The notes under the pieces are model-generated. The model saw only the letters and a program-made list of their open reading frames with translations. It was not told the DNA's origin and ran no database searches. This document shows, one piece after another, positions 15,168 to 63,649 of a DNA stretch of 64,000 nucleotides (positions are counted from its first letter, which is position 1; every line of letters starts with the position of its first letter). This DNA comes from a virus (lineage: Duplodnaviria > Caudoviricetes). Position numbers and translations under genes: made by a program. The stretch is from the IMG/VR virus record IMGVR_UViG_3300042307_000844. One strand, given 5' to 3'.

Positions 15168-15598
15168 TGTTCCAAGAGTTCTGGATTTTCAAATATATTA
15201 CCACACACCACCCAATATGTCCAGTCGCATAAATTTACAAAATTATCATGCAGTGGAGATGGCGATCCATGTAAATTATTGACATTGTTATGGACGAAAC
15301 AACATTCTTTATCATTCCAACCAACCACAATTTTACAAAAAGACCCATTACCCACCCTCTCAAGGATATCCCCATCATAAATCTCTTTGTTGTTTTTGTC
15401 TATCAATCCAGTGAATTGTTGAAGAACGTAATCATCGGAACAATCAACATCTCCACAATGTTTAAAATCTCCACGCAACTTGCCGTTCAATTGTAAATAG
15501 AATTTTTCAGCATATTCTCCATTCATTATCGGAGTCGAAGATGGGTAAAACATCTCTTTATATAGAATATTCCAAATCCTGAATTTTATATCTCTCAT
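15164..15598 (-). CDS. YopX family protein
   Basis: 'MRDIKFRIW', 'QFTGLIDKNNKEIYDGDIL', and 'GNIFENPELL'. Confidence 0.9.
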   Translation of the reverse strand: MRDIKFRIWNILYKEMFYPSSTPIMNGEYAEKFYLQLNGKLRGDFKHCGDVDCSDDYVLQQFTGLIDKNNKEIYDGDILERVGNGSFCKIVVGWNDKECCFVHNNVNNLHGSPSPLHDNFVNLCDWTYWVVCGNIFENPELLEQ

Positions 15599-15882
15599 TT
15601 CTTTTTAACTTTTTTCTGCTCGGAACGAACATACTTGGTGACAAATTTACTCTTCGAAATTGTGCTGTCTTGATCCAAAAACACCTTAACAAGCTCCTGA
15701 TCAGAGTCAAGGGACAATATCGTTTTCAGGATCGTTTTCAGCTTCTCCTCTTGGAGAGTTGTCACGAAAACGTTCTGGATGGATAATTTCTTACCTTTGA
15801 TGTTATTTACGAAAGTGCAATAACAGAGAAATAAGTGGTTCTGTTCATTTTCTATTATATTTGAGGAGGGGTCGTATATCAT
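15595..15882 (-). CDS. Hypothetical protein; intact paralogue of the TnpB-disrupted gene
   Basis: Residues 4-30 match the remnant ORF at 17199-17324 at 18 of 27 positions. Confidence 0.8.
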   Translation of the reverse strand: MIYDPSSNIIENEQNHLFLCYCTFVNNIKGKKLSIQNVFVTTLQEEKLKTILKTILSLDSDQELVKVFLDQDSTISKSKFVTKYVRSEQKKVKKK

Positions 15883-15884
15883 AA

Positions 15885-15932
15885 TTAAATTGCGTGGGGT
15901 TGTTCGATAGATGAATCAAATAGGCGTTTCAT
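15885..15932 (-). CDS. 15-aa mini-ORF (MKRLFDSSIEQPHAI)
   Basis: ATG lies 6 nt after the -10 hexamer; the stop is 2 nt before the next ATG. Confidence 0.4.
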   Translation of the reverse strand: MKRLFDSSIEQPHAI

Positions 15933-15938
15933 ATATAT

Positions 15939-15966
15939 ACTATAATCTATTTTTCACCGAAGTCAA
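15939..15966 (-). promoter_or_regulatory. Sigma70-type early promoter TTGACT-N16-TATAGT
   Basis: Same architecture as the promoters at 22511, 27603 and 39018. Confidence 0.65.
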
Positions 15967-16005
15967 ATTAAATTACGATATTTCATAAAATATTAAGAAA
16001 AAGAC

Positions 16006-17239
16006 TAAATAATAACATAGAAGAGGAAATTACATACCAAGCTTTCAAATTCAGAATCTATCCGTTAGATTCTCAGAAGGAATTACTAGCAAAGCATTTT
16101 GGATGCTCTCGATTTATTTATAATTATTTTCTAAAAGAGAAACAAGATCATTATTTGAATAATGGCAAAACTTTAAATTATAATTATTGTTGTTCTGGTG
16201 TTAAAAAATTAAAAGACTCTGATGAATATTCATGGCTCAAAAAAGTCAATTCACAAACACTACAACAATCTTTAAAAAATCTTGAGACTGCGTATGGCAA
16301 TTTTTTCCGTAAGAAATCTAAATTTCCAAAATTTAAAAAGAAATCAAACCAACAATCATTTGGGGTTTGCCAAGGAGTTAAAATAAAAAATAATAATAAA
16401 TTACAAATTTATAAATTTAAAGAAGGAATACCGATTCATCTCCATCGTAAATTGGAAGGAAAAATCAAATCAGCAACAATTTCCAAAACGCCCACCGATA
16501 AATATTTTGCTTCCATCCTTTGTGAAGTCCCCAAGAAATCTAAACCAAAGACTGGTAAGACTTTGGGTATTGACTTGGGTATTACAGATTTCATAGTAAC
16601 AAGCGATGGGGAGAAAGTAAAAAATCCCAAATTCAATCATTCTTTAAAACAAAAGCTTTCAAAAGCTCAAAAACATTTAAGTAGGAAAACGAAAGGTAGC
16701 AATAGATACAAAAGACAAAGAAAAAAAGTAGCGAGAATCCACGAGAAGATAACCAATTCTCGGAAGGATTTCCAACACAAATTAAGCACTCGTTTGATTA
16801 ACGAGTATGATATGATTTCTTTAGAATCTCTGGCTGTTAAGAACATGATTAAGAATGTAAATCTTTCTTATAGTATTCAAGATAGCTCTTGGAGTTCTTT
16901 TATATCAATGTTGGAATATAAAGCCAAGTGGTATGGTAAGGAGATTAGGAAGATTGATAGATGGTATCCTAGTTCCAAGACCTGCCATAAGTGTGATTAT
17001 ATTATCGATAAGCTACCTTTGTCAGTGAGGCGTTGGATATGTCCCAAGTGTGGTGAGAACCATGACAGGGACATCAACGCCGCAAAAAACATTCATCGTC
17101 AGGGATTGGCGATTACAGATGTGGAGATGGAAGCTCTGGTTGCCAGCAATGGCGACGAAACTACTGTCTGTGAAGCGTCTAAAAAGAAGTCTTATAGACT
17201 AAGACTGAAGCCGCTGGGTCTTGCCCATCGGTAGTTCAC
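16006..17239 (+). mobile_element. Non-autonomous IS200/IS605 (IS1341-type) tnpB element
   Basis: tnpB plus a right-end subterminal hairpin CCG-C-TGGG-TCTTG-CCCA-T-CGG (17211-17231) and terminal GTAGTTCAC. No tnpA in the window; the left end is not recognisable. Confidence 0.85.
16017..17234 (+). CDS. tnpB: RNA-guided endonuclease TnpB
   Basis: The frame extends upstream of the called TTG (16155) through the HTH 'AFKFRIYPLDSQKELLAKHFGCSRFIYNYFL' to an ATA at 16017. RuvC D (GIDLG), E (LESL) and D (DRDINAA) are present, plus a CHKC/CPKC zinc finger. Confidence 0.92.
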   Translation: MEEEITYQAFKFRIYPLDSQKELLAKHFGCSRFIYNYFLKEKQDHYLNNGKTLNYNYCCSGVKKLKDSDEYSWLKKVNSQTLQQSLKNLETAYGNFFRKKSKFPKFKKKSNQQSFGVCQGVKIKNNNKLQIYKFKEGIPIHLHRKLEGKIKSATISKTPTDKYFASILCEVPKKSKPKTGKTLGIDLGITDFIVTSDGEKVKNPKFNHSLKQKLSKAQKHLSRKTKGSNRYKRQRKKVARIHEKITNSRKDFQHKLSTRLINEYDMISLESLAVKNMIKNVNLSYSIQDSSWSSFISMLEYKAKWYGKEIRKIDRWYPSSKTCHKCDYIIDKLPLSVRRWICPKCGENHDRDINAAKNIHRQGLAITDVEMEALVASNGDETTVCEASKKKSYRLRLKPLGLAHR

Positions 17240-17259
17240 CTTTGAGATGGTTCACGAAG
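17060..17259 (+). ncRNA. Predicted omega/reRNA scaffold plus guide (guide ~17240-17259, CTTTGAGATGGTTCACGAAG)
   Basis: Inferred from known TnpB biology: the scaffold overlaps the tnpB 3' end and the guide is read from the flank beyond TCAC. The 5' boundary is approximate. Confidence 0.6.
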
Positions 17260-17324
17260 GAACAATAACAAATGAATAAGTGATCGCTCTCGCTTTCTAT
17301 AATTGCAGATGAAGGATTGCTCAT
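17199..17324 (-). pseudogene. 5' remnant of the gene disrupted by the tnpB element
   Basis: MSNPSSAIIESESDHLFICYCSFVNHLKG, then element-derived ELPMGKTQRLQS*; ATGA-coupled to the upstream gene. Confidence 0.85.
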
Positions 17325-18010
17325 AATTCTATTGTTTCTATGTGAATATTGTTTTCAAAAAGCGGTTGGAAATGACTCCAATTTTTATGAAATTGATTTA
17401 GACCAGAATTGTCAAATAAACCCACTTGATATCTAATACCTTTCAATGGGAATGTGTCCCTATTGATATTTTGGAACTCAATTGGAGGAGATTTACCATC
17501 AAAACGAATATCGATATTTTCATCATATTGTCTCCGCACCATCTCACATAATTGTCGGTTGGAAGAAAAATGGATAACATTTTTACCGTTGAAAGCTTCC
17601 CAAGCAGCCAGCGTCAACAAGAAAATGGATACACCTTTTCGTCTGGTAAAGGTGAGATAATTATACCCTTCAATATAACCACGAAACATCGTTTTTTGAT
17701 CATAATTGATCGGATATCCATTAAAATTCTCAAAGAACTTATAGAATTCCCCCGTGGGATTAGGATTATTAGGCTTTGGTGTATAGAACTCCCCAAGATA
17801 TACCGATCCTTCATACGGATTATCATTATTCCATGCCAGAAACAGCATATGAGATATCCTTCGCACGTTATCCCAATCCTTTGGTTGTTTTTCCGCTGGA
17901 TAGAATTTCTCAGAGATTTTAGACACTTCGGAGACGAATCGCAATTCCTCCCCCATTACCTTATTGGGGTTGTGTTTCTCGTTGATGTGTTGTATTTCGT
18001 ATAATTTCAT
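17321..18010 (-). CDS. Hypothetical protein with degenerate P-loop-like C-terminal half
   Basis: 'TRRKGVSIFLL...GKNVIHFS'. Confidence 0.55.
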   Translation of the reverse strand: MKLYEIQHINEKHNPNKVMGEELRFVSEVSKISEKFYPAEKQPKDWDNVRRISHMLFLAWNNDNPYEGSVYLGEFYTPKPNNPNPTGEFYKFFENFNGYPINYDQKTMFRGYIEGYNYLTFTRRKGVSIFLLTLAAWEAFNGKNVIHFSSNRQLCEMVRRQYDENIDIRFDGKSPPIEFQNINRDTFPLKGIRYQVGLFDNSGLNQFHKNWSHFQPLFENNIHIETIEL

Positions 18011-36086: not shown

Positions 36087-36378
36087 ATTCTTTTGCTGTT
36101 TCATTAAGCACATCTCCAATATTTCGGAAAAAACTTTCAATGTGGTAGTTATCTCTCCACATCATATCTCGTCCAAAAGACGGTGTATATTGATCAATAA
36201 TTTTAGCAGATTTCTGCTGAACCCTGTCGAGATAATCCTTTCTCACTTCGTTCAATAATTCATCCTTGTCGTATTCTGATCGAATCAATCCTTCCACTTT
36301 TTCAATCAACAATCTCTGATCAAGAGATGCTTGCGATTTAATTTGTTGTAAGTTCATGCTATTCGTCATCATACTCAT
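36070..36378 (-). CDS. Hypothetical protein
   Basis: Packed ORF. Confidence 0.55.
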   Translation of the reverse strand: MSMMTNSMNLQQIKSQASLDQRLLIEKVEGLIRSEYDKDELLNEVRKDYLDRVQQKSAKIIDQYTPSFGRDMMWRDNYHIESFFRNIGDVLNETAKEYDKEK

Positions 36379-36808
36379 CTCCCTCCAAATTCGGTTTCAC
36401 ATATACATGTCCCATGGAATCCGGCCCACTCATGCTTTCCATATACACCATCTCCTTGTAATCCTCCAGACCCTTGTGTTGACCGTTTTCCTTCTTGATG
36501 CGGTTACAGAAAGCGTTCCAAGCAATGCGGTTGAAATAGGAAAATGGGTTGTATTCCGATTCGATGTTATAGAGCTTCTTTTCCAAAGCTGCATACATTT
36601 TCAACACCGCATCCCCGACCATTTCCTGTTTCCAAGACTTGGAATAACGGATGAAATTGATCTTGTATGACAATCCCTCCGCAATATTCATCAAATGGAC
36701 ACCCAATTCATCCAAATTCTCCCCCGTTTCATAATACTCAACCAATTGCTGTTTGAAGAGCTTGGAATTGACATAATGGGGTTTCTTAGCGTTTTTGTTT
36801 TCCGTCAT
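36359..36808 (-). CDS. gp55: Late-transcription sigma factor (T4 gp55-like)
   Basis: 'HYVNS', 'EMVGDA', and 'NPFSYFNRIAWNAF..RIKKE'. Confidence 0.92.
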   Translation of the reverse strand: MTENKNAKKPHYVNSKLFKQQLVEYYETGENLDELGVHLMNIAEGLSYKINFIRYSKSWKQEMVGDAVLKMYAALEKKLYNIESEYNPFSYFNRIAWNAFCNRIKKENGQHKGLEDYKEMVYMESMSGPDSMGHVYVKPNLEGDEYDDE

Positions 36809-44849: not shown

Positions 44850-45596
44850 ATGGCAATTAAAAATGCTCCGAAAGGAAAACGCCGGGAAGTCAATTTAGTA
44901 GATGTTGAAAGTGCTATCGCCAATAGCTACAATAAGATTGACTTCAAATTTAAAAACAGAGCTTTCAAATTAACCGACAAACAAAAAGAGTTGGTTTCAA
45001 TTATAAACGATCCAAATACTAAGGTTGTTATAATTCAAGGCCCAGCCGGAACTGGAAAATCTTGGACATCTATTTATTGTGGATTGACGTTGATTAAAGA
45101 ACAAAGATTTGAAAAGCTTCTTTATGTGAGAGCCATGGTTGAAAGTGCTTCCAAATCCATGGGATATCTTCCGGGGTCAGAAGCAGACAAGACATTACCA
45201 TTTAATGCTGTAGCTTTTGAGTTGATAAATAAGCTGGTAGAAGATAAGGATTTACCTAAAATTCAAAAAGCTGGTATCATCGAAACTATGCCAGTAAACC
45301 ACGCTAGAGGACACACATGGGATAATATGTTTGTTTTAGTTGATGAAACGCAGCAAATGGAAACCAAGGAAATTCTTACGGTTGCTAGTAGGCTGGGGGA
45401 GAATAGCATTATGGTCTTAGCTGGAGATCACATGCAACCAGATATCCAGAGGAGTGGTTTTCAGGCTGTTTATAATGCCTTCAACGATCAAGAATCCATT
45501 GATAATGGTATCAGGACATTTGAATTTACGGAAGATGATATCGTAAGGTCAAAAATTCTCAAATTCATCGTCAAGAAATTTAAGACAATTTCTTAA
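44850..45596 (+). CDS. phoH: PhoH-family ATPase
   Basis: 'GPAGTGKS', 'GYLPG', 'RGHT', 'DETQ', 'GDHMQPD', 'DIVRS'. Confidence 0.93.
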   Translation: MAIKNAPKGKRREVNLVDVESAIANSYNKIDFKFKNRAFKLTDKQKELVSIINDPNTKVVIIQGPAGTGKSWTSIYCGLTLIKEQRFEKLLYVRAMVESASKSMGYLPGSEADKTLPFNAVAFELINKLVEDKDLPKIQKAGIIETMPVNHARGHTWDNMFVLVDETQQMETKEILTVASRLGENSIMVLAGDHMQPDIQRSGFQAVYNAFNDQESIDNGIRTFEFTEDDIVRSKILKFIVKKFKTIS

Positions 45597-46848
45597 AATT
45601 TTTAACAGAATATGTTATCAGCCTATTCCAAAAATCCAATCCTTCAGGATGATGTCTTTCAATTATCAATCTGAGAGTCTTCATTAAAACATTTAAATCT
45701 TTCATAATTTGATAAACATTTGAATGTTCTGTTATATTTGGTGCTAAAGATTCGTTGAAGATTTCTTCAAAAGTTCTTCCATTGTTGTTCATTCGTTGTA
45801 ATCTTTCAGCGTGTTTTTTATTATCACTTTCTTTCTTTTTATATGTCATTTTTTTAATCCTACTCAGATCAAAATTAGGATCAATTTGCTCCACTATACT
45901 TCTAATATAATGTGGTCGCCAGTTACAATTGGCTAATTGTTGTATTTCTTTAATATTTAAAGGTTTTTCTTTTAAAGCTGGTATAATTATTTGTTCACAT
46001 AACTCTAAATGTGTCATTCCATTGTTAGCATTTCGTTCCATTACTTCACTCTGTCTCGCCTTCCACGCATCAGAAAGTTTGATACCATATCTTGGATTTT
46101 TATCACCCTTCACCGATAATTCACCGGATGCGAATTTTTGTTTTCTTTTTTCTTTAGTTCTTTTAATACCCGCATCGTAGATGTGTGGATTTTCTAATTT
46201 TCGGATACGCCTAGTTTCTTTTTGTTTTTCAATTGTTTCTTTTGAATGTTTTTTACCTCTCATAAATGATCTATCGACCAATTTATTTGATATTCTCATT
46301 TTTTTCTTGGTTTCTTCACTATGTTTTCTACCAATCATATTACCAACTCTACCTTTTTTATACTCTTCTGGCATGATAGGTGTCCATCCTTGTAAAATCA
46401 TTTCATCATAATGGTTGGGGTCTAATATATTAACATATATAACATTTTCACTCATGTATAATTTTTTATATTTAGGTTTTGCTTTTTTAAGAGATTCATA
46501 AAATCTAGAATTAACATATCGTTGTTCTTGGTGTTTATTTTTTAATCTCATTTGGAAGAAGGCAAAATTCATTTTTTGGTTCTTAATTTTACAATTAAAC
46601 ATTTTCGTCAGCAAAAGATGTGCTATAAAATGATCTCTTCCGGGTAAAATGACTACGTTATCATCACAAGATAGAATTTCAGGATCGACAAATCGTTTAA
46701 ACGATTTTGGTATGATGTGATGTTTTTCACAATAGACATCATCGGAATATTGAGTTGATAAAGATTTATTTATTATGGTAACATACCATTTGACATATTT
46801 TGAGTTGTTCGATATTCTTGTTATTTCGTTTAGTATTGATTTGGTCAT
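45580..46848 (-). CDS. Free-standing HNH homing endonuclease with NUMOD3 repeats
   Basis: 'EKHHIIPKS...N.VILPGRDHFIAH' and 'GRKHSEETKKKM'/'GKKHSKETIEK'; own late TAAATA at 46854-59. Confidence 0.88.
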   Translation of the reverse strand: MTKSILNEITRISNNSKYVKWYVTIINKSLSTQYSDDVYCEKHHIIPKSFKRFVDPEILSCDDNVVILPGRDHFIAHLLLTKMFNCKIKNQKMNFAFFQMRLKNKHQEQRYVNSRFYESLKKAKPKYKKLYMSENVIYVNILDPNHYDEMILQGWTPIMPEEYKKGRVGNMIGRKHSEETKKKMRISNKLVDRSFMRGKKHSKETIEKQKETRRIRKLENPHIYDAGIKRTKEKRKQKFASGELSVKGDKNPRYGIKLSDAWKARQSEVMERNANNGMTHLELCEQIIIPALKEKPLNIKEIQQLANCNWRPHYIRSIVEQIDPNFDLSRIKKMTYKKKESDNKKHAERLQRMNNNGRTFEEIFNESLAPNITEHSNVYQIMKDLNVLMKTLRLIIERHHPEGLDFWNRLITYSVKNFKKLS

Positions 46849-60601: not shown

Positions 60602-62380
60602 ATGGGACTAAATAATACTATGGGTGGAAAGTATCATAGTAATAAAGATGTTATAGATCATTTCAAAAGAATACACTGTGATAAATACGATTATTCATTA
60701 GTTCATTATACTGGTAATCTAAATTTAGTCGATATCATATGTCAAAAACATGGAGTATTTAAGCAGTCTCCAAAAAAACATAAAATAGGTCATGGGTGTC
60801 ATAAGTGTAATACCCAAAGAAAGCGAACTGAAGAGGAGGCAATTGAAGAGTTCAAAATAAAACACGGTAATAAATACGATTATTCGGATTTGGAATATAA
60901 AAACGGTTCCAGTCTGATTAAAATAGGATGCCCAACTCATGGGTGGTTTTATCAAAAAGCCAGTGAACATAAAATCGGTTATGGGTGTGCTAAATGTGCC
61001 AATCACGAGAAAAGTCCCCCATATGAAGAATGGTTAAATTCGTGTGTTGAAAGACATAATAATTATTATGATTATTCTATTTCAAAATACGAAACATTGT
61101 CTAAATCAGTTAGAATAATTTGCCCAAAACATGGAATTTTCACACAAAAGGCGGGAACACATAGAAATGGTAGTGGTTGTAAAAAATGTGGGGATGATAG
61201 AAAAAGTTTGAAATATCAACAATTATTTACCACGGAATCTTATATAGAAAAGTTAGAAGAAAAACATGGTGATAAGTATGATTATAGTAAGGTTAATTAT
61301 ACCACTTTAAAAAATCCTGTCACTCTTACATGTCCCAAACATGGAGACTTTACAAGATTTCCCCAAAATTTATTAAAAGGTGGTGGATGTGACAAATGTT
61401 TAGATGAAATCAGAGTTAAAAAATCTCTAACAAAAGTTAAAAAACATTTTAAACATAATAATTTCGAGTTGGTAATAGATGAAAGCAAGTTCAAGGGATT
61501 CAATAATGAGATATTTTTAACATGTTCAAAGCATGGAGAATTTGTAAGATTTCTTGATATGAATATTTTTGTTTTAAATCATCCGTGTTTAAAATGTGGG
61601 ATGAAGATATCAAAATTGGAACAACGAGTGTCCGAAACGTTGGACGATCTTGGAATATCACACATCCAACACACTAGATATAAAGATGATAACGGTAAAA
61701 TATACGAAATTGATATATTAACCCCTGATTTGAGTATAGGGTTTGAGATTAACGGACTTAGATATCATGGAGAAGTTATGGGTAAGGATTCTGACTATCA
61801 TAGGTGGAAAACCGAAGAATGTTATAAACGAGGTATAAAATTGACACACATTTATGAAAATGAGATTATAGGATCAGACCACTTCAAACACAAAATTTTC
61901 AGAGAATTGGGATTGAGAACCCAAGCAAATGACTCGTGTGTATTTGAATATGTTGGAGATGATTCCATAAATGATTTTATAATCAATAATCACCCATTGG
62001 GGTTGATGAAAAATTGTATTAATATGGTTTGTTGTAATGATGGAGATATATATGGTTGTATATCGTTTAAAGATAACACTGTATTAAGAGTAGCCAATAA
62101 ACACGATGTTGATATGTCTAAAGTGTTTCAATCTATGATAAGACAGTATATGAATGATCATGAATTAAATACAATAGTAAGTAATGTGTTATTTGATTGG
62201 GATGATCTTACACTATTTGAAGAATCAGGATTTATCGTCAAAGATACCATCGAACCAGTTTGTTGGAAATTTATCAACGCGAAACATGATAAGATTTACA
62301 CCCACGATGAAGAATTATTGGCTGATAATGTTGATAAATTTTGGGATACTGGTGGATATTTGATGGAATTTTTGATTTAA
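60602..62380 (+). CDS. Homing-endonuclease-like protein: five CxxHG..CxxC repeats plus a PD-(D/E)xK/Vsr-like domain
   Basis: Repeats 'HGDKYDYS..Y...CPKHG.F......GC.KC', then 'SKLE...EIDI....GFEINGLRYH'. Confidence 0.75.
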   Translation: MGLNNTMGGKYHSNKDVIDHFKRIHCDKYDYSLVHYTGNLNLVDIICQKHGVFKQSPKKHKIGHGCHKCNTQRKRTEEEAIEEFKIKHGNKYDYSDLEYKNGSSLIKIGCPTHGWFYQKASEHKIGYGCAKCANHEKSPPYEEWLNSCVERHNNYYDYSISKYETLSKSVRIICPKHGIFTQKAGTHRNGSGCKKCGDDRKSLKYQQLFTTESYIEKLEEKHGDKYDYSKVNYTTLKNPVTLTCPKHGDFTRFPQNLLKGGGCDKCLDEIRVKKSLTKVKKHFKHNNFELVIDESKFKGFNNEIFLTCSKHGEFVRFLDMNIFVLNHPCLKCGMKISKLEQRVSETLDDLGISHIQHTRYKDDNGKIYEIDILTPDLSIGFEINGLRYHGEVMGKDSDYHRWKTEECYKRGIKLTHIYENEIIGSDHFKHKIFRELGLRTQANDSCVFEYVGDDSINDFIINNHPLGLMKNCINMVCCNDGDIYGCISFKDNTVLRVANKHDVDMSKVFQSMIRQYMNDHELNTIVSNVLFDWDDLTLFEESGFIVKDTIEPVCWKFINAKHDKIYTHDEELLADNVDKFWDTGGYLMEFLI

Positions 62381-63612: not shown

Positions 63613-63649
63613 TTTTCAAAAAATTCATACCCGATCTCTAAATAATAAT

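Follow-up and report, generated by a model that had tools for sequence, protein, structure and literature searches.

Can a gene whose reading frame opens with ATA, where ATG would be expected, still be a working gene? The question is raised by a tnpB gene in a 64,000-nucleotide (nt) stretch of DNA (hereafter, the window) of the IMG/VR virus record IMGVR_UViG_3300042307_000844, which is 177,639 bp long, has 39% G+C and comes from an uncultured lake-water T4-like phage. By its sequence this gene (16017..17234, + strand) encodes an RNA-guided nuclease of the IS200/IS605 family, and its ATA stands 5 nt behind a T4-type late-promoter core. The answer developed here, to which we assign a probability of roughly 0.7, is that AUA is the real start codon of a late, probably leaderless message and that it throttles the nuclease.

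Read from the ATA at 16017, tnpB is an open frame of 405 codons closed by a TAG at 17232-17234, and its product carries three domains, each scoring above its curated Pfam cut-off: HTH_OrfB_IS605 at the N-terminus (PF12323; residues 8-51, 57.7 bits), OrfB_IS605 (PF01385; residues 166-280, 115.8 bits) and the Cas12f1-like Zn-finger TNB domain (PF07282; residues 292-359, 92.1 bits). The window protein matches the solved ISDra2 TnpB (PDB 8h1j, 8exa) with an E value of ~1e-88, in an alignment that starts from residue 4-5 of the solved chain; the D-E-D triad of the RuvC site is kept, GIDLG, SLESL and HDRDINAA aligning with the motifs of the ISDra2-like solved chain, and so is the CxxC...CxxC zinc finger (CHKC...CPKC). 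The original prediction on this DNA, made from its letters alone, had recognised TAAATA at 16006-16011, a spacer of five nt and an ATA at 16017 in frame with an N-terminal helix-turn-helix (HTH), and had pointed out that a start at the TTG of 16155 would lose the latter; both statements are borne out, the Pfam domain occupying 16038..16169 (+ strand) and the TTG (16155..16157, + strand) being codon 47. This TTG is the first canonical in-frame start; it is where gene callers begin their 359-residue product (P0001), from which the HTH region is missing, and it is probably not the biological start. Judged by the intact motifs, by the selection described below and by the guide RNA, the window tnpB is most likely full-length and functional.

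A sequencing or assembly error at position 16019, which the original prediction had named as a possible refutation and had proposed to look for in close homologues, can be set aside with hardly any doubt. The region is identical throughout in IMG/VR 3300044638 (contig L002) and in NCBI GCA_043537725.1 (contig L158, a 90-kb contig compared over 4,080 bp), which are possibly not independent samples, and ATA is also present in all the diverged relatives. This set comprises 14 distinct copies with ~67-85% amino-acid identity, drawn from viral contigs, metagenomes and assemblies (the window copy, the two copies of L003, and L005, L006, L007, L008, L069, L146, L152, L154, L155, L156 and L157); in 14/14 of them, that is, in the window and its 13 diverged relatives, codon 1 is ATA behind gACTAAATAAt-N3, the box itself varying to TAAGTA in two copies and to CAACTA in one. 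Two further members of the clade, whose support is 100/99, carry at the same codon and behind the same box ATG (L149) or GTG (L150), and at the aligned position the sequences of more distant homologues open with M/VEKEVQYKAYKFRL (MEKEVQYKAYKFRL or VEKEV...). By this alignment with ATG, GTG and M/V starts, codon 1 is the ancestral start-codon position, and ATA has persisted there through extensive divergence. In the tree of these genes the GTG copy is basal and the ATG copy is nested among the ATA copies with weak support, a topology for which one reversion or two origins of ATA are possible.

The codon itself is conserved beyond what its amino acid would account for: 11 columns are Ile in all 14 copies, and codon 1 (ATA in every copy) is the only one of them that is invariant as a codon, the other ten mixing ATT, ATC and ATA, the last of which is the minority Ile codon of these genes, at 25%. 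These observations bear on the second outcome allowed by the original prediction, namely that a single G-to-A change had recently killed the start and left the element a decaying fossil. ATA is indeed one base away from ATG, and the window copy has no tnpA and a short left end; against such a history, however, ATA recurs in 14 copies at a synonymous divergence (dS) of ~1.2, reading frames, catalytic residues and guide RNA are intact, the HTH codons are under purifying selection, the lineage is found at many differing loci, and codon 1 is better conserved than any other Ile codon, so that recent inactivation must be considered very improbable. The other outcome then proposed, a weak non-AUG start that limits the nuclease, fits all the comparative evidence; ATA has most likely been kept under selection across the lineage, as a weak start codon and not as the mark of a broken gene.

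Independent of the codon, the sequence that follows it carries the signature of translation. Between the upstream in-frame stop and the ATA, none of the 14 copies has an ATG, GTG or TTG; this stop lies 15 codons before the ATA in the window and 0-36 codons before it across the set, being directly adjacent in L005 and four codons away in L007, L008 and L154. An upstream extension of the reading frame was accordingly rejected, there being no start codon in that interval and stops only 0-4 codons before the ATA in these four copies. Downstream, the first canonical in-frame start varies in position, falling at codon 17, 23, 24, 47 or 60 according to the copy, and the codons that precede it evolve as protein-coding sequence: among the ATA copies the median ratio of non-synonymous to synonymous substitution rates (dN/dS) is 0.11 over codons 2-46, with dS ~1.2, compared with 0.135 for the rest of tnpB, and over codons 10-16 (FKFRIYP), which lie before every canonical start, the proportions of non-synonymous (pN) and synonymous (pS) differences are 0.059 and 0.834 (pN/pS 0.07). 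Since codons 2-46 bear this mark of purifying selection, translation would begin at the ATA or next to it; a conserved codon, the lack of an alternative start and purifying selection on the codons downstream are thus found together at this position.

A truncated TnpB, begun at the first canonical codon (TTG 16155 in the window) and leaving the upstream codons untranslated, is the reading that the databases suggest. Internal starts have been called for 57/60 of the closest database clusters, whose proteins consequently appear without their N-terminal domain, and the truncated 359-residue protein is present in 59 blocks of the assembly collection; yet the internal start is not conserved in position, the codons it would leave untranslated are those with dN/dS ~0.11 and, for codons 10-16, pN/pS 0.07, and its product would be devoid of the PF12323 region, whose alignment to the solved ISDra2 TnpB begins at residue 4-5 of the latter. 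We therefore regard truncation as quite unlikely. If the ATA is the start, gene callers truncate the proteins of this lineage, and surveys of TnpB diversity, of domain content and of 'dead' copies are biased accordingly. Two other candidates within the first codons were rejected: ATT at codon 5, which is CTT or ACT in five copies, and a downstream start served by GAGGA (16023-16027) as a Shine-Dalgarno motif, there being no start at a suitable distance from a motif that is absent from the relatives.

The first codons of the gene show a further constraint, at the nucleotide level. Over codons 2-9 (16020-16043) pS among the ATA copies is 0.36, compared with 0.75-0.83 over codons 10-16 and 17-46, with no variation across the clade in GAA (codon 4) or ACA (codon 6). 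Such low synonymous variation is what would be expected of selection on an initiation region, and it suggests selection at the nucleotide level over the message's first ~25 nt.

What precedes the ATA would assign the gene to a class of transcripts that is well represented in this phage. The core TAAATA (16006-16011, + strand; CTAAATA with the preceding C) is followed by the five nt ATAAC and by the ATA (16017-16019), so that, if transcription starts at 16017, the core occupies -11 to -6. The original prediction had counted fourteen other genes with TAAATA-N5-ATG, which proved an undercount: the window holds 18 matches, compared with 1.75 expected and with a value of 18 reached in 0/100 shuffles, and 17/18 of these sites open reading frames of at least 40 codons; the site at 63638 (ctaaataataatATG), with which the tnpB site had been compared, is present as described. 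In the whole genome there are 45 matches, 44 with reading frames of at least 50 codons, and any other spacing from 0 to 15 nt between TAAATA and ATG gives only 2-8 matches, the distribution being sharply peaked at 5. The genes concerned include head-closure, prohead-protease and scaffold-like genes, together with two homing or HNH endonuclease-like genes directly behind the motif (60620-62380, + strand, 586 residues; 45580-46848, - strand, 422 residues), and the selfish nucleases of this phage seem in general to be tied to late expression.

The late box of phage T4, TATAAATA, spans -13 to -6, and a variant of it, CTAAATA from -12, is used by phage Aeh1 (PMC1524935). Under the T4 spacing rule the box of the present phage falls at -13/-11 to -6 and the first base of the start codon becomes the +1 position, so that messages of this layout would be leaderless; by the same spacing, and by it alone, the tnpB message is probably leaderless and the ATA is the predicted +1 of a late transcript. 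The sigma factor that such promoters call for is encoded in the window (36359..36808, - strand; matching phrog_234, 'late sigma transcription factor', E 5.4e-24) and is of the gp55 type. A genome-wide scan of the N5 position also found GTG at the head of three long reading frames of 824, 741 and 101 codons (their boxes lying at 134750 on the + strand and at 74675 and 167726 on the reverse-complement strand, given as 0-based offsets of TAAATA on the scanned strand of the phage sequence, G000:C1), from which it would seem that this phage tolerates starts other than AUG on its putative leaderless late messages; among the long reading frames of the genome, ATA at this position is found for tnpB only.

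The AUA start might also be real and yet lie on a leadered message, the mRNA beginning upstream of 16017 and the 30S subunit binding to an AT-rich leader. It speaks for such an arrangement that T4 late start points are assigned here by rule and that the conserved left end of the element reaches ~40 nt upstream; against it, the sole strongly conserved upstream element is TAAATA, placed at the very N5 spacing of 44 ATG genes, no Shine-Dalgarno motif was found upstream of the ATA, and, since all the genes adjoining tnpB are on the opposite strand, same-strand read-through from an upstream gene is unlikely. On balance a leadered AUA message appears unlikely, and a leaderless one is preferred.

That the promoter belongs to the element, and not to the place where it landed, is indicated by a comparison of the copies. 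Similarity between the window and other copies begins at 15977, and the short left end thus delimited (15977..16016, + strand; ~40 nt, its boundary tentative) holds the late-promoter box; from this end onwards the window and L146 share ATTACGATATTTCA..., and between copies in general the upstream similarity is limited to ~35-40 nt, a stretch that includes the box. The copies lie at many phage loci, beside genes for a DEAD-box helicase, UvsX/RecA, the baseplate protein gp25, the large terminase subunit, a sugar epimerase and others. A box contained within ~40 nt that are shared by copies at such differing loci, ATG and GTG members included, is part of the element, and the late promoter would accordingly be carried in the element's own left end and not gained locally in the phage. 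Of the claim in the original prediction that the gene had been captured under gp55 control, the control is thus supported by the late box at its exact spacing and by the gp55-type sigma factor, and the local capture is not.

By the left end, at 15973..15976 (+ strand), stands TTAC, a tentative candidate for a target-adjacent motif (TAM) or TnpA target motif, which also occurs at the insertion point of the uninterrupted target gene described below; IS608 likewise targets TTAC (PMC13565253). The left-end boundary and the motif agree across the window, L146, L003+ and L152, though not across all copies. The window copy has no tnpA and only ~40 nt of upstream sequence in common with the others, and it is therefore not an autonomous IS605/IS608 element, which has a Y1 tnpA and hairpins at both ends; a divergent Y1_Tnp gene is kept in the relatives L147/L148, L149 and L157. 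In L003/L147/L148 two ATA-start tnpB copies, in opposite orientation, flank a single Y1 tnpA, and in L007/L008 two ATA-start copies lie ~70 kb apart on one 120-kb contig. Taken together, this distribution suggests that the lineage has remained mobile. It also appears to be confined to phages, the best match among representative genomes of 185,579 prokaryote species having 50% identity; in the cultured-phage collection no near relative of the locus was found by megablast or blastn, and tblastn returned only TnpBs of at most 50% identity. As to the tnpA genes of the related elements, at 2393-2478 of L147 and at 2394-2478 of L157 the frame has no ATG and opens with a TTG only 2 nt after another CTAAATA box, and the gene of L149 is N-terminally truncated.

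At its other end the element carries what is predicted to be the guide RNA of the nuclease. Similarity among 16 copies stops at ...GTTCAC, at 17239 (the right end of the element being ...GGTAGTTCAC), each copy continuing with 20 nt of its own; for the 150 nt before this end RNAalifold gives a structure of 25 pairs, 16 of them with compensatory changes, and a search of 15500-17600 found no Rfam match. The putative scaffold of this guide RNA (omega RNA; 17090..17239, + strand) overlaps the 3' end of tnpB, and the 20 nt that follow, CTTTGAGATGGTTCACGAAG (17240..17259, + strand), would be the guide, which is antisense to codons ~24-30 of an interrupted phage gene, here called gene X. Gene X is a small conserved phage gene of ~94 codons that, where the element is absent, directly follows a gene for a neighbouring 229-residue protein; in the window its 5' fragment, cut by the insertion and orphaned (MSNPSSAIIESESDHLFICYCSFVNHLKG; 17240..17324, - strand), retains ~30 codons, and the encoded protein is identical to the N-terminus of the intact X in L182. 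Uninserted alleles of X read TTAC and then the guide sequence, with 19/20 positions matching in L182-L185 and one mismatch in L061, L193, L186 and L187. The element is thus, as far as the alleles allow it to be reconstructed, inserted at a TTAC within X, with its guide aimed at the element-free alleles of related phages. From this match of TTAC and guide to uninserted alleles, at 19 or 20 of 20 positions, we infer RNA-guided, TAM-dependent cleavage, for which this arrangement would be suited to TnpB-driven retention or homing between co-infecting phages.

The proposed mechanism would then run as follows. An IS605/IS608-like lineage resident in aquatic T4-like phages would carry its own late promoter, CTAAATA, fused to the start codon of tnpB; late in infection, RNA polymerase directed by gp55 would start at A16017, yielding a leaderless message that begins AUA-GAA-GAG. 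The ancestral ATG or GTG would have changed to ATA, and selection would have kept it, the nuclease being made late and at a reduced rate; ribosomes would initiate on the AUA with lowered efficiency, giving a low dose of the full-length protein. Guided by its RNA, TnpB would cut targets flanked by TTAC, here the uninterrupted allele of gene X, and the cutting of that allele would favour inheritance of the element when related phages co-infect. Start codons of the AUA, AUC, AUU and CUG type work in vivo in E. coli at 1-2% of AUG, and in vitro an AUA message competes about as well as an AUG message and far better than an AUU one (PMC5499595). That AUA outcompetes AUU in vitro would fit the retention of ATA rather than ATT or ATC.

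Several points weigh against this scheme. The transcription start, the leaderless state and AUA initiation, and with them the low yield and the homing role, are all deduced from sequence comparison; the ATG of L149, weakly supported as its nested position is, implies that ATA is not strictly irreversible; and the invariance of ATA could in part reflect a DNA-level preference of the region where the promoter starts transcription. No helper transfer RNA (tRNA) that would read AUA as an initiator was found in the window, and the six tRNAs of the genome (Lys, Asn, Glu, Thr, Tyr, Pro) include none that could assist. Leaderless messages in E. coli depend strongly on a 5'-terminal AUG, so that a leaderless AUA might be very poorly read, and it is chiefly for this reason that our confidence is held at the value stated at the outset. 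A variant of the proposal makes the AUA a conditional start, read well only when fidelity is relaxed late in infection (for example, with initiation factor IF3 limiting, or by initiation of the 70S type) and serving as both timer and dose-limiter of a homing nuclease. Such a conditional start is doubtful at present; if true, it would be a counterpart in the bacterial world of mitochondrial leaderless AUA initiation, operating in RNA-guided homing between lytic phages.

Among the closest known systems is the ISDra2/IS608-type TnpB: the three Pfam domains, the D-E-D RuvC site and the zinc finger are the same, the guide RNA is structured and overlaps tnpB at its 3' end, the flanking DNA provides the guide, a TTAC-type target motif is likely, and some relatives of the window copy keep a Y1 tnpA. 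The window lineage differs in residing on T4-like phage contigs and in having a late box fused to an ATA start, and the window copy differs in its lack of tnpA and its left end of ~40 nt. With the homing endonucleases of T4 (I-TevI, Seg, Mob) it shares a selfish, site-specific nuclease in a lytic T4-like genome, a late promoter and a predicted target that is the element-free allele of related phages (homing is reviewed in PMC13565253), and in T4 the products of such genes are likewise kept low in amount and confined to late infection; the window TnpB, in contrast, would recognise its target by an RNA guide and not by protein, and its expression is proposed to be damped through the start codon, whereas I-TevI is damped through mRNA structure. 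Measured against the TAAATA-N5-ATG genes of its own phage, tnpB has the same box and spacing, the others beginning with ATG, or rarely GTG, and tnpB with ATA.

Limiting non-AUG starts (AUU in infC; elsewhere AUA, AUU, AUC or CUG) offer a parallel in that a near-cognate codon stands at an authentic start and is retained by selection, and OrfB of IS911 uses AUU; the tnpB codon differs in being AUA and in its predicted position at the extreme 5' end of the message, and we know of no autoregulatory factor for it. Leaderless mRNAs that start with AUA occur in mammalian mitochondria (PMC11775629), a likeness to be taken as analogy only, since there AUA is decoded as Met by a modified tRNA-Met and the phage encodes none such. 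Taken singly, TnpB elements, the control of phage nucleases by late promoters and non-AUG starts are all known; what is probably new is their combination in a TnpB lineage that is restricted to phages, brings its own late promoter and has a selected, probably leaderless AUA start, a combination of which no description was found in the literature.

Cas12 descends from TnpB, itself a compact nuclease for genome editing, and to our knowledge little is known on how natural elements set its dose; the present lineage appears to have fixed, within its left end, two natural controls on that dose, a late promoter and a near-cognate AUA start. Should the message prove leaderless, as its spacing implies, it would provide a selected non-AUG leaderless start outside mitochondria, and so bear on how strict the need for a 5'-terminal AUG is. 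The match between guide and target in related phages, moreover, allows RNA-guided homing, or the cleavage of competitors, between lytic phages to be tested directly.

On the other side of the element, the window holds a complete copy of X (X', 95 residues; 15595..15882, - strand), whose first 30 codons are a diverged allele. At 15791..15814 (+ strand) X' has TTAC and a protospacer-like site that departs from the guide at positions 7, 8, 10, 11, 14 and 20 and matches the natural L177 allele exactly. A cargo that restores the target gene was rejected as a property of the lineage, the flanking duplication of the target being found in the window copy only; given this restriction, recombination between phages accounts better for the duplication, and the most economical account is that recombination between two phages restored X with an allele resistant to cleavage. 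X' is preceded by a 94-nt spacer (15883-15976), of which no origin was found; it ends in TTAC and has, on the minus strand, a sigma70-like TTGACT-N16-TATAGT.

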